From NCBI RefSeq assembly GCF_003334315.1, contig NZ_QOWR01000109.1: DNA of 2,574 nt; one strand, written 5' to 3'. The position numbers were made by a program, and so were the translations under genes. This stretch comes from Escherichia coli. GTDB taxonomy: Bacteria; Pseudomonadota; Gammaproteobacteria; Enterobacterales; Enterobacteriaceae. Shown here one piece after another: positions 1 through 2,473 of this stretch; the first letter of the stretch is position 1, and every line of letters starts with the position of its first letter. The notes under the pieces were generated by a model, which was not told the DNA's origin, searched no databases, and saw only the letters and a list, made by a program, of their open reading frames with translations.

Positions 1-61
1 TGTTTTTGTCATGTGAGTCACCTCTGACTGAGAGTTTACTCACTTAGCCGCGTGTCCACTA

Positions 62-397
62 TTGCTGGGTAAGATCAATCAGCTTCCCCCTACGGAAGAT
101 AATAAACAGCCTTCTTTTGATGTTCTTGATGATGATTGGGATGCGCCTTTGCCGTGGGAGACGGAAGAAACACCTGTTTCATCAAGTGAAAAGGTAGCTA
201 ATGATAAGGAGGATGTGTTAGAGAATTTTGCCTCTCTTATCATCCAGGAGAAGACTACTAGAACAGGAGGGGCATCATTTATAGAATTTGCAACATCGTT
301 AGCCTATAAGCACAGGTTAAAGCTACCAAATGGTATTGAGGCATATTTTTCTAAGAATTACCCAAATGTATACGAAGACTTTGATCTTCCCTTTTAA
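62..397 (+). CDS. Hypothetical acidic protein (111 aa) with an SSB-tail-like C-terminal tip ...YEDFDLPF; start codon uncertain
   Basis: Open frame from TTG at 62 to TAA at 395-397. An in-frame TGA at 29-31 rules out any start upstream of 62, and there is no in-frame ATG anywhere in the ORF. No clear SD precedes the TTG, so the start is uncertain; an in-frame GTG at 215 follows an AAGGAGG at 206-212 but the spacing is only 2 nt. The N-terminal half is strongly acidic and low-complexity (DVLDDDWDAPLPWETEE). The downstream gene's SD sits 5 nt after the stop, consistent with an operon. Confidence 0.5.
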   Translation: MLGKINQLPPTEDNKQPSFDVLDDDWDAPLPWETEETPVSSSEKVANDKEDVLENFASLIIQEKTTRTGGASFIEFATSLAYKHRLKLPNGIEAYFSKNYPNVYEDFDLPF

Positions 398-1233: not shown

Positions 1234-1572
1234 ATGAACAAAAACACGTATGACACAATTTACTCACTAATTAATTATTATGAGGATGATTACCTCCTGC
1301 CTTTAAACCGCGCTGAACTTGAAGCATACAAAGAAAACACGCCAGCGGCACTAAATGAGGCGTTTAAACACTGGGATTTAGCTGTGAATGCCTTTGAGCA
1401 CCTCTCTAAGCGTGTAGAGATGCTCTGTAAGCGTGAGAACGCATATCTAACAGCGGATCAGATATGGAGTCTCTCAAACTGGATAGAAGGTATTGAATCG
1501 GACGTTCGCTATGTAGGGGATGGCCTTGTTGAACTCGCACAACGCTTAGGCGCTGCTATCACAGAAGAATAA
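1234..1572 (+). CDS. Hypothetical acidic, probably alpha-helical protein (113 aa from ATG 1234), translationally coupled to the upstream CDS
   Basis: The ORF track starts this frame at ATG 1207, but ATG 1234 is preferred: GGAG at 1221-1224 lies 9 nt upstream and the upstream gene's TAA (1230-1232) is 1 nt before this ATG, the classic coupling arrangement. ATG 1207 and ATG 1219 have no SD. Stop is TAA at 1570-1572. Protein from 1234 begins MNKNTYDTIYSLINYYEDDY... Confidence 0.6.
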   Translation: MNKNTYDTIYSLINYYEDDYLLPLNRAELEAYKENTPAALNEAFKHWDLAVNAFEHLSKRVEMLCKRENAYLTADQIWSLSNWIEGIESDVRYVGDGLVELAQRLGAAITEE

Positions 1573-1601: not shown

Positions 1602-1630
1602 TTGACATTTCATATATTGTATGTTAATAT
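1602..1630 (+). promoter_or_regulatory. Sigma-A-type promoter: -35 TTGACA (1602-1607), 17-bp spacer, TGn-extended -10 TAATAT (1625-1630)
   Basis: Perfect -35 hexamer, a 5/6 match at -10 with TG at 1622-1623 in the extended -10 position, and optimal 17-bp spacing. An A-rich tract (1571-1590) sits where an UP element would be. Predicted transcription start is near 1637. Sequence inspection only. Confidence 0.6.
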
Positions 1631-1636
1631 AATTAT

Positions 1637-1839
1637 ATAGGGTGATTATTTTTCCTTTATTGGTTCGATATTAAAAATTCTTCTTGTCGTTAAAGGGGAG
1701 TAAAATCTCCGCTCCCCGCTTCTCCTCCTTAAGTAATACTGTGTCATTTACCTCTTTTTTCCTTTGTTATGCATACATCTTGGAGTGTGCATAACATAGG
1801 GTAATTACAAAGGCGGCTTTAAATGCTGCCTTTTATTTT
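1637..1839 (+). ncRNA. Putative structured 5' leader or small RNA (about 200 nt) running from the predicted start site to the terminator hairpin
   Basis: Bounded by the promoter at 1602-1630 and the hairpin plus U-tract at 1809-1839. It contains a G-rich block AAAGGGGAG (1692-1700) that can pair with any of three CU-rich blocks (1706-1710, 1712-1717, 1721-1727), and an imperfect 10-bp inverted repeat (1767-1776 with 1785-1794). No ORF with a credible SD lies inside. I could not match it to any riboswitch class from memory. Confidence 0.3.
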
Positions 1840-1851
1840 GCCCGTTATGCA
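1766..1851 (+). repeat. Three copies of the 8-mer GTTATGCA: 1766-1773 (+), 1788-1795 (inverted, TGCATAAC), 1844-1851 (+)
   Basis: Exact 8-bp matches read directly from the sequence. The first and second copies form an inverted repeat with a 14-bp spacer; the third lies between the terminator hairpin and the 1902 CDS. Candidate operator half-sites or RNA structural elements. Confidence 0.3.
1809..1839 (+). terminator. Intrinsic-terminator-like hairpin with U-tract (AAAGGCGGC-TTTAAAT-GCTGCCTTT then TATTTT)
   Basis: The GC-rich stem GGCGGC (1812-1817) pairs with GCTGCC (1825-1830) including one G-U pair, is extended by three A-U pairs, has a 7-nt loop, and is followed by TTTTATTTT (1831-1839). 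It sits 237 bp after the stop of the 1234-1572 CDS and 62 bp before the 1902 start, so it could terminate block A, attenuate readthrough into block B, or both. Confidence 0.55.
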
Positions 1852-1901
1852 ACTTAAAAGTTGTATTTCTTACTTTAAACAAGGTAACAAGGTTTATATA
1901 A

Positions 1902-2114
1902 ATGTTGTTCTTAAATGATAAAGAGCAAATCATCAAGTATCGAGATGAAATGCTGCGAATTACTCCACAAATTACCGAAATGGTAGCTAAATACGCTGGG
2001 TGTTCTGTCGAGGAAGTAGAAAGATGTGTTGAAAAATATTTTTCTCCTTCTTCTCCGTCTACACCTTCCCTTAATGAATTAATCAAATTAAAAGCTAAGG
2101 AGATTACTAAATGA
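1902..2114 (+). CDS. Hypothetical small protein (70 aa): N-terminal helical region with possible HTH, Ser/Pro-rich linker, Lys-rich C-terminal helix
   Basis: ATG at 1902 with AAGGT at 1888-1892 (9-nt spacing). The frame is open to TGA at 2112-2114, which overlaps the next start as ATGA. Contains ITEMVAKYAGCSVEEVERCVEKY, then SPSSPSTPS, then LNELIKLKAKEITK. No family recognised. Confidence 0.55.
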   Translation: MLFLNDKEQIIKYRDEMLRITPQITEMVAKYAGCSVEEVERCVEKYFSPSSPSTPSLNELIKLKAKEITK

Positions 2115-2473
2115 TTATTGATTTAGACACTCTGTTTCCAGTTCGAAAGACTTTCACAGATATTGTAAGTTATTGTACTGATCCGTTTGCCTCTGTAGAA
2201 AGCAAGGTTTTTGCTTCTCTTCCTGCTGATGTTGAATGCGGAGACTTGATCACCAGCACGGGCGCTAAATATGTATCAGGAGATGATATCTATGTTGTTA
2301 TGAGTGAATTTGTAACGGCTGGAGAAAACAAGCCTGTAGATGTTTTACGTAGCAATGCTGGCCTTGTGTGCATTAAAGCTGATGCGCTGAATGCTGTAAG
2401 TGAAGCAGCAAAAACAGCATTAATTAAAAAAGGCTTCCAGCTTGAAGGCTTCCACTCTGTTTTCACTTCTTAA
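2111..2473 (+). CDS. Hypothetical acidic protein (120 aa), translationally coupled to the upstream 70-aa CDS
   Basis: ATG at 2111 overlaps the upstream TGA (2112-2114) in an ATGA arrangement. AAGGAG at 2097-2102 gives 8-nt spacing. Open to TAA at 2471-2473. No family recognised. Confidence 0.6.
   Translation: MIIDLDTLFPVRKTFTDIVSYCTDPFASVESKVFASLPADVECGDLITSTGAKYVSGDDIYVVMSEFVTAGENKPVDVLRSNAGLVCIKADALNAVSEAAKTALIKKGFQLEGFHSVFTS

Follow-up and report, generated by a model that had tools for sequence, protein, structure and literature searches.

In bacteriophage lambda, late control runs through the constitutive promoter PR', the 194-nt 6S RNA and the terminator tR', which is read through by Q. 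The immI operon of P1 consists of a promoter, a structured RNA and an ORF of about 70 aa that is translationally coupled to the next gene. The put sites of HK022 bring about processive antitermination by RNA alone and form two short stem-loops (about 70 nt) that act in cis on RNA polymerase. Small RNAs of enterobacteria usually have a promoter of their own and a U-tailed terminator. In Vibrio cholerae, the satellite PLE carries the gene for a small RNA, SviR, that regulates genes of both the phage and the satellite (bioRxiv 10.1101/2022.04.08.487710).

Here we describe a promoter, a structured RNA and an intrinsic terminator at the head of the capsid genes of a mobile element in Escherichia coli. 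We tentatively read this cassette as a terminator-gated leader of the capsid (late) operon, with a probability of about 0.4.

The window, the whole stretch of 2,574 nt that was analysed, comes from E. coli. The initial annotation spoke of sigma-A and thereby implied a Gram-positive host; since the host is E. coli, the relevant factor is sigma-70. The window is enterobacterial in origin despite its low G+C content (37%), and about 300 complete E. coli genomes have a chromosomal match to positions 78-2497 at 94-97% identity. It holds a remnant copy of a low-GC element that IS3 has cut on both sides, with the right edge of the element match at 2488-2497. The IS3 transposase ends have thousands of matches in plasmids and E. 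coli genomes, which is the basis for assigning 1-93 to IS3. In the plasmid database, the window matches through these ends only, and an IS3 fragment was the sole match when the phage database was searched at the DNA level with the window, the intergenic region and the 600-nt RNA described below. Of 5,426 complete E. coli genomes, 307 have the intergenic region that carries the cassette, in every case on the chromosome and at 90-100% identity. E. coli 47-1826 (NZ_CP184839.1) has an intact element with a 100% identical cassette. A scan for tRNA and tmRNA found none.

Intact copies (L001, L002) form an element of about 12-12.8 kb at tRNA-Thr, downstream of proA, with this order:

First gene, opposite strand: small recombinase gene.
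Next, 2.35 kb without ORFs: seven 22-23-bp iterons.
Early operon, plus strand: near-consensus promoter, two small ORFs, a replication-initiator-like protein and three small ORFs annotated without function.
Intergenic, plus strand: the 329-bp region that separates the early (replication) operon from the capsid operon.
Capsid operon, plus strand: 70-aa ORF, 120-aa ORF and major capsid protein (MCP).
After the MCP gene, plus strand: 67-aa ORF, a protein of about 610 aa and a Dit-like/tail-fibre-like protein.
Last gene, opposite strand: tyrosine integrase.

The replication-initiator-like protein matches several PHROG replication-initiation families (best E = 4e-9), the MCP matches phrog_29 (E = 2.6e-15) and PF03864, and the protein of about 610 aa matches a "tape measure" PHROG. 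The MCP gene starts 18 bp after the 120-aa ORF in intact copies. We recognised no portal, terminase or protease in the element, and the nearest MCPs of cultured phages are Pseudomonas myovirus proteins at about 25% identity, with no coliphage match. For these reasons we treat the element as a probable phage satellite that depends on a helper phage. Five small ORFs had no match in PHROG or NCBIfam; the 92-aa and 136-aa ORFs had none in Pfam, the 136-aa ORF had none in the PDB, and the 120-aa ORF had no useful PDB match. A candidate idea for the 120-aa product was a gpD-like decoration protein, and its AlphaFold model was unusable (pLDDT 41.6). Literature searches, including searches by sequence strings, returned no description of the element or its RNAs. 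The element family and its RNAs thus appear to be undescribed in Rfam, in the phage collection and in the literature searched.

The features of the window are as follows:

1-93, no strand: IS3-family end that truncates the left side of the element and cuts the replication-initiator-like gene.
1234-1572, plus strand: 112-aa ORF, last gene of the early operon, encoding an acidic helical protein (RefSeq annotation of an intact copy).
1579-1592, no strand: palindrome 1, CAACAAAAAAGTTG (CAAC-N6-GTTG), just upstream of the -35 element, with its centre about 51 bp from the predicted start.
1602-1630, plus strand: sigma-70 promoter with TTGACA (1602-1607), a 17-nt spacer ending in TGT, and TAATAT (1625-1630), extended -10.
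1637-1842, plus strand: predicted non-coding RNA that begins A(U)AGGG and is about 205 nt long, with both ends inferred.
1695-1717, plus strand: hairpin 1, GGGGAGU paired with GCUCCCC, -12.2 kcal/mol; next comes the pyrimidine tract GCUUCUCCUCCUU (1718-1730).
1765-1796, plus strand: hairpin 2, 12-bp stem, -15.9 kcal/mol.
1809-1842, plus strand: intrinsic terminator with a 9-bp stem, AAAGGCGGC paired with GCUGCCUUU (1809-1833), five G-C pairs, a 7-nt loop and a U-tract.
1850-1863, no strand: palindrome 2, CAACTTAAAAGTTG (CAAC-N6-GTTG), between the terminator and the ribosome-binding site.
1902-2114, plus strand: 70-aa ORF, first gene of the capsid operon.
2111-2473, plus strand: 120-aa ORF, second gene of the capsid operon, overlapping the 70-aa ORF by ATGA.
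2476-2574, no strand: second IS3-family end, truncating the capsid operon 3' of the 120-aa ORF.

The initial annotation had placed a TTGACA-N17-TGnTAATAT promoter in a 329-bp intergenic region, and both are borne out. The stop codon of the 112-aa ORF ends at 1572 and the next ATG is at 1902, which leaves 1573-1901. The promoter scores 10/12 and carries the extended -10 TG, an A-rich stretch lies upstream of it, and it is the top-scoring promoter of the window in a consensus scan. Only two promoters that combine TTGACA with TG occur on the plus strand of the intact 12.8-kb element, this one and the one that drives the early operon. Relatives share homology with this promoter region (blastn E = 2e-6 for L022), including the upstream palindrome and the AGGGT start, and a promoter stands at the equivalent position in 16/16 representative loci, though the flanking sequence changes.

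The GC stem and U-tract that had been noted at 1809-1839 form a canonical intrinsic terminator, with a hairpin of -13.7 kcal/mol and the tail UAUUUUG. This is the sole good plus-strand terminator in the window. The intact element has two, and the other one follows the capsid gene. The hairpin stands 62 nt ahead of the first gene of the capsid module and is the first terminator on the plus strand downstream of the early operon. Since the early operon has no terminator of its own, the hairpin would end that operon too.

A sceptical reading of this arrangement is that an ordinary terminator of the upstream operon happens to lie beside a fortuitous promoter-like sequence, without any dedicated function. 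Promoter-like hexamers are frequent in this AT-rich DNA (31% G+C in the intergenic region; 11 observed in the window versus 6.9 expected), and the terminator is the first to follow the early operon. The promoter nevertheless outscores all others in the window and carries an extended -10, and its position is kept in every diverged relative examined despite changed flanks. Furthermore, the promoter precedes the terminator, which is the reverse of the usual order between two operons. We consider a chance arrangement distinctly improbable.

Transcription from this promoter is predicted to start near 1637-1639 and to end near 1839-1842, giving an RNA of about 203-206 nt. The RNA region (1637-1845) folds at -59.4 kcal/mol versus -39.2 +/- 4.1 kcal/mol for 200 shuffles (z = -4.87), which agrees with the structured RNA of about 200 nt proposed earlier. 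Three hairpins are strong, namely those at 1695-1717 and 1765-1796 and the terminator. Leaders of the Q-dependent kind also have a Q-binding element at the promoter and, within roughly the first 25 transcribed nt, a pause signal resembling a -10 element. In the window, a GATTAT sequence at 1644-1649 has the A2 and T6 that matter most in a -10 element; such matches are commonplace in AT-rich DNA, and this position is not conserved in relatives. By eye, we also saw resemblances to the RfaH ops element and to nut boxA/boxB.

To describe natural variation, we aligned 18 distinct E. coli versions of the intergenic region. Across these versions, the three stems and the tract GCUUCUCCUCC hardly change, and neither does the stretch that runs from the terminator to the ATG. 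In hairpin 1 and its tract, we found one 2-nt deletion and one C>U change in the tract. The sole variation in hairpin 2 is a G to A change at 1787 that turns a U-G pair into U-A, and the terminator stem is invariant while its loop varies (U or C). The number of G residues at the start of the RNA ranges from 3 to 5. The linkers are different: the one 3' of the pyrimidine tract is rich in indels, and linker indels of 1, 2, 3, 9 and 17 nt occur among the variants. The region is therefore non-coding, and these natural indels rule out the two ORFs considered there, one of 36 aa on the plus strand and one of 33 aa on the minus strand.

The initial annotation had looked to compensatory changes in homologous regions as evidence for structure. 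Among the E. coli variants, the stem changes go from wobble to Watson-Crick only, and there are two of them (the U-G to U-A change in hairpin 2 and a G-U to A-U change in the hairpin after the terminator). None of the 18 variants has a double compensatory change, and with so little variation in the window type, covariation speaks neither for nor against the fold of the window RNA. Strong covariation did come from a longer type of RNA at the same position in related elements, as described below.

The 17-nt indel lies directly upstream of the terminator stem and abuts it, which argues against a finely tuned overlap of terminator and antiterminator. No alternative structure that competes with the terminator, and no antiterminator overlapping its 5' arm, is apparent. 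These observations bear on the suggestion that the leader is a metabolite- or tRNA-sensing riboswitch or attenuator, for which the general layout of promoter, leader and terminator is the one point in favour. The leader had been said to match no known riboswitch class, and Rfam agrees: neither the window nor the intact element nor any of six related loci gave a relevant hit, whether scanned at the gathering threshold or by E value. The top Rfam score in the RNA region was 15.4 bits for SprD, against a gathering score of 100, and there was no hit even at E = 10. In addition, related loci do not conserve the RNA body, the frame-shifting indels leave no leader peptide intact, and the genes downstream are for a capsid and not metabolic. 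We regard a sensing leader of this kind as having very little chance of being correct.

The earlier view that no acceptable promoter lies between 1840 and 1901 holds up, as nothing on the plus strand there passes the consensus scan. The same is true of the stretch from the last terminator to the 70-aa ORF, both in the window and in 16 representative relatives, with all five RNA types described below covered, although a consensus scan is blind to an activator-dependent promoter downstream of the terminator. Of the translation signals claimed for the ORF at 1902, the ATG and the coupling to the next ORF stand. The Shine-Dalgarno sequence consists of AAGG only, 9 nt 5' of the ATG.

The arrangement brings to mind the CI RNA of P4 and the C4 RNA of P1 and P7. 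On such a model the RNA, or a part processed from it, would base-pair with the read-through transcript around the ribosome-binding site that serves the small first ORF, and thereby block translation and, by polarity, transcription of the coupled genes. The likeness is real at the level of layout. In both cases an enterobacterial mobile element has a constitutive promoter and a structured RNA that comes from the leader of the operon it controls, and as in P1 immI the first ORF is of about 70 aa and coupled to the next gene, here by the ATGA overlap. The window RNA also contains anti-Shine-Dalgarno-like tracts (CUCCUCC, UUACCU and CCUUUGUU), and for the 600-nt type RNAalifold predicts pairing between a UUCCUUU tract and the ribosome-binding site GAAGGAA, with a few compensatory changes. 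However, several pyrimidine tracts are present, and chance pairing to a purine-rich site is expected. The window RNA matches neither the C4 covariance model nor any other Rfam family, and it lacks significant complementarity to the downstream initiation region: 152 of 300 shuffles formed an equally good duplex with the initiation region of the 70-aa ORF. The controlled genes also differ, being capsid genes here and replication or antirepressor genes in the described systems. Taken together, a C4-type mechanism seems improbable to us.

When the RNA was compared with the 15 translation-initiation regions of the element using RNAduplex, no distinctive duplex was found, and no inverted repeats or extended complementarity join the RNA to the rest of the element. 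We also considered a cos site resembling lambda cosN; the match was not beyond chance.

Homologues of the 120-aa ORF (54-70% identity) occur in Citrobacter, Klebsiella, Kluyvera, Leclercia, Cronobacter and Enterobacter and in a second E. coli type, and their loci have the gene order of the window element. Homologues of the 112-aa ORF (29-33% identity) stand at the equivalent position in relatives. Between the last early gene and the ORF of about 70 aa, the relatives have an ORF-free stretch of roughly 450 to 1000 nt. Five unrelated RNA bodies occupy this position, with lengths of about 205, 450, 600, 600 and 800-1000 nt. Every type has a strong promoter immediately past the stop codon of the preceding gene, a transcript start at or adjoining (T)AGGG and several pyrimidine-rich tracts. 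Every type also has a terminator-like hairpin shortly 5' of the ORF of about 70 aa; some of the relatives' terminators were called by eye, as a simple scanner misses stems that run into the U-tract. Conservation of the leader in homologous loci, which the initial annotation had anticipated, therefore extends to the layout and not to the RNA body, as judged by nhmmer and a covariance model.

One RNA type of about 600 nt is widespread, with copies in elements of Citrobacter, Klebsiella, Cronobacter, Leclercia and Enterobacter, and a conserved 18-mer from it retrieved 34 more copies from metagenomes. We aligned 33 non-redundant sequences of this type, for which RNAalifold gave a consensus of 128 pairs. 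In this alignment, 86.1% of cells were paired, compared to 42-49% with slid partners, two-sided changes occurred in 248 cells (62-82 with slid partners) and the covariation score was 0.233 (about 0.08 with slid partners). None of 500 shuffles attained the observed values. These data clearly show that the structure of the 600-nt RNA is under selection. Many of its pairs alternate with G-U, and thus the structure is that of a plus-strand RNA and not of DNA. The 600-nt RNA has no match in Rfam or the phage database, and it carries two successive terminator hairpins, which suggests that the capsid genes have to be tightly insulated.

Does the window RNA belong to this family as a short member? The 600-nt RNA is three times as long. 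An nhmmer comparison was marginal (E = 0.089 over 65 nt), and a covariance model of the central domain of the 600-nt RNA (R1) had no hit in 1637-1845 at E values up to 10. Membership was rejected on these grounds. Position and strand are shared and the promoter region is homologous, while the RNA body is not detectably so; judged by sequence comparison, the window RNA is therefore called a positional counterpart of the 600-nt RNA and not a member of its family.

The RNA unit is flanked by the two palindromes. In the 18.3-kb locus L002, CAAC-N6-GTTG occurs twice against 0.26 expected, and both copies flank the RNA unit. Palindrome 2 sits within a weak 8-bp RNA hairpin (1847-1866, -6.5 kcal/mol). 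In relatives, the promoter-side motif lies either in the spacer, overlapping the -10 element, or upstream of the -35 element, and L022 and L039 have TAAC-N6-GTTA at the position homologous to palindrome 1. After the last terminator, relatives have TAAC-N6-GTTA or, in some, CA[A/G]C-N6-G[C/T]TG. The half-sites change in concert: both sites read CAAC/GTTG in the window type and TAAC/GTTA in L043 and in most members of the 600-nt type, while some relatives, L023 among them, have CAAC/GCTG variants in both places, with GCTG as the right half in L023. This concerted change points to a dimeric DNA-binding protein that recognises both sites, and both palindromes are probably binding sites of one such sequence-specific protein. 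In L039 and L043, the downstream palindrome is 27-28 nt from the ATG, which leaves no space for a promoter with a normal leader. The spacing favours a putative operator or roadblock at this site over an activator site.

The terminator-gated leader brings these features together as follows. Polymerase would initiate efficiently at about 1637 and mostly halt at 1840, so that a discrete RNA of about 205 nt would accumulate, and the same terminator would close the replication operon. As the capsid genes have no recognisable promoter, they would be transcribed solely when polymerase passes the terminator. Passage could be brought about by an antitermination factor encoded by the element or its helper, or by removal of a protein bound to the palindromes. 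Such a protein would act as a second lock, and the copy past the terminator could be a roadblock. In support of the gate, the layout is conserved while the RNA sequence diverges, and it always stands directly before the same ORF. Capsid expression must stay off in the integrated state, which fits gating of the downstream module.

The comparison with lambda is close in several respects. In both, a strong sigma-70 promoter stands directly before an operon of virion genes, an intrinsic terminator ends an RNA of about 200 nt before the first late gene, and the late genes lack another promoter (for the capsid operon, as judged by the consensus scan). By analogy, the cassette layout can be regarded as a variant of known phage late-gene control. 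In contrast to lambda, there is no Q homologue beside the promoter, just upstream of which a Q-family gene normally lies, or elsewhere in the window element by PHROG, NCBIfam, Pfam or PDB searches. The hairpins of the window RNA are also conserved, the unit lies between a pair of palindromes, and the element's MCP is not closely lambda-like. Against the gate, we found no antiterminator, the upstream ORFs having no match in these four resources, and no structure that would compete with the terminator is apparent. With an MCP identity of about 25% and no coliphage match, a lambdoid helper that supplies a Q protein is not indicated. HK022 put offers a second parallel, since there too a phage-like E. 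coli element has a structured RNA transcribed directly downstream of a strong promoter and before terminators. However, constitutive read-through of the put kind would give no discrete terminated RNA.

Gating by itself does not account for the RNA body. A pure by-product of termination needs no conserved hairpins, and here the stems are invariant while the linkers vary, which counts against a leader that serves as a gate only. The conserved hairpins suggest that the RNA has a role beyond filling space, and the selected structure of the 600-nt relatives fits an RNA with its own function.

The main rival to the gated leader takes up this point. It holds that the RNA of about 205 nt is independent and acts in trans on host, helper-phage or element transcripts, for instance by base pairing or by binding a protein, and that the capsid operon uses an activator-dependent promoter by palindrome 2. 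The RNA has its own strong promoter and a U-tailed terminator, its hairpins and the candidate seed tract CUUCUCCUCC are near-invariant whereas the linkers take indels, and its relatives of 600 nt are structured RNAs under selection. Diversification between element types is as expected in conflict with a helper. SviR of PLE is a precedent (bioRxiv 10.1101/2022.04.08.487710), likewise a non-coding RNA from a phage-satellite-like island. The two differ in that their sequences are unrelated, the host and element family are others, and we found no targets for the window RNA within its element; as noted, its duplex with the 70-aa ORF was no better than those of shuffles. In line with this, no conserved complement to the conserved loops of the 600-nt RNA exists within the elements that carry it. 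The capsid-operon promoter that this reading calls for is also not detectable. We therefore see an independent trans-acting RNA as possible, if somewhat unlikely. It is compatible with the gated leader, and the two readings are not mutually exclusive.

A broader proposal is that these RNAs, about 205 nt in the E. coli type and 600-1000 nt in relatives, are a new class of large structured non-coding RNAs with an active role in the life cycle of the element. We hold this to be doubtful. Possible roles for such an RNA are RNA-mediated processive antitermination, a determinant of helper-phage specificity or immunity, or a cofactor of capsid assembly or packaging.

The cassette stands at the control point of the capsid genes in an element family that about 6% of complete E. 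coli genomes and several other Enterobacteriaceae carry. If it is a true gate, it would show how these elements silence and time their capsid genes, and it would imply a factor for antitermination or derepression. The RNA of about 600 nt, with its strong covariation support, appears undescribed and is absent from Rfam. To our knowledge, large structured RNAs of undefined function are rare in enterobacteria, and this one is experimentally approachable in a model host.

In related elements from Citrobacter, Klebsiella, Cronobacter, Leclercia and Enterobacter, and in gut or wastewater metagenomes, the position of the window RNA is occupied by a structured non-coding RNA of ~600 nt. We aligned 33 non-redundant sequences of this RNA (alignment A4), from the following loci:

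L016:3117-3790, ~600-nt RNA
L040:5112-5790, ~600-nt RNA
31 further loci, ~600-nt RNA

The alignment has 128 predicted pairs; the paired fraction is 86%, compared with 42-49% for slid controls, and compensatory changes are numerous. A search of Rfam and the phage database with the ~600-nt RNA returned no match. The RNA carries two terminators, which are separated by a conserved promoter-like stretch:

A4 columns ~700-730 (e.g. L012:3629-3656, L016:3621-3649), promoter-like stretch, TTTAGA-16-CATAAT or TTAACA-17-GAAAAT

On the 3' side of this stretch a hairpin is conserved (AAUGCUUUCU...AAGGGCAU), and the two together may form a second small transcription unit of ~85 nt.

One and the same long intergenic RNA is found in L020 (JAEWTL010000083.1) and the second E. 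coli type, another related element within this species. L020 is a MAG contig labelled 'Bacillota bacterium' that contains this enterobacterial element, and its 120-aa ORF shows 69% identity. The contig is probably mis-binned.

Downstream of the window RNA, the start region of the 70-aa ORF contains a further feature:

Window 1886-1909, palindrome AACAAGGTTTATATAAATGTTGTT, covering both the Shine-Dalgarno element and the start codon of the 70-aa ORF

Directly 5' of the palindrome, AACAAGGT is tandemly duplicated, and one natural variant is missing one of the two copies.

IS3-family insertions have affected some copies of the element. The window copy is flanked on both sides:

Window 1-93 and 2476-2574, IS3-family ends

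Its left part is lost, with the replication gene cut, and everything 3' of the 120-aa ORF is gone, including the capsid gene. In E. coli MLI104K2 (L009:340-401), an IS3-family element inserted exactly at the AGGG start has replaced the RNA promoter, and this insertion is a natural promoter knockout.

The intact copy in the 18.3-kb E. coli locus L002 includes these features, which lie outside the window:

L002:4368-6720, ORF-poor region of 2.35 kb with no ORF >62 aa
L002:6582-6650, early-operon promoter, TTGACA-17-TGtAATAAT (11/12), then TAGAGGG

The ORF-poor region contains seven iterons of 22-23 bp (GGTAGGTCACTGTGAACTAGGGG) at 5087-5454 along with several further repeat sets, and probably serves as the element's origin of replication and control region. 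The early-operon promoter and the RNA promoter share one layout, with TAGAGGG following the former and TAGGG at the RNA start. Because of this matching layout, the G-rich start may belong to the element's promoter design and not to the function of the RNA.

The capsid-gene region of the same copy includes:

L002:9933-13843, major capsid protein; ~610-aa protein with a tape-measure PHROG match; Dit-like/tail-fibre-like protein
L002:10973-11051, strong terminator immediately 3' of the capsid gene

A sub-threshold Rfam match to 'caiA RNA' in the latter interval (27 bits; gathering score 55.5) probably reflects nothing more than the terminator hairpin. The major capsid protein shares at most ~25% identity with cultured-phage proteins, and none of the element genes could be recognised as encoding a portal, terminase or protease. 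This gene set is unusual for a satellite or minimal virus.
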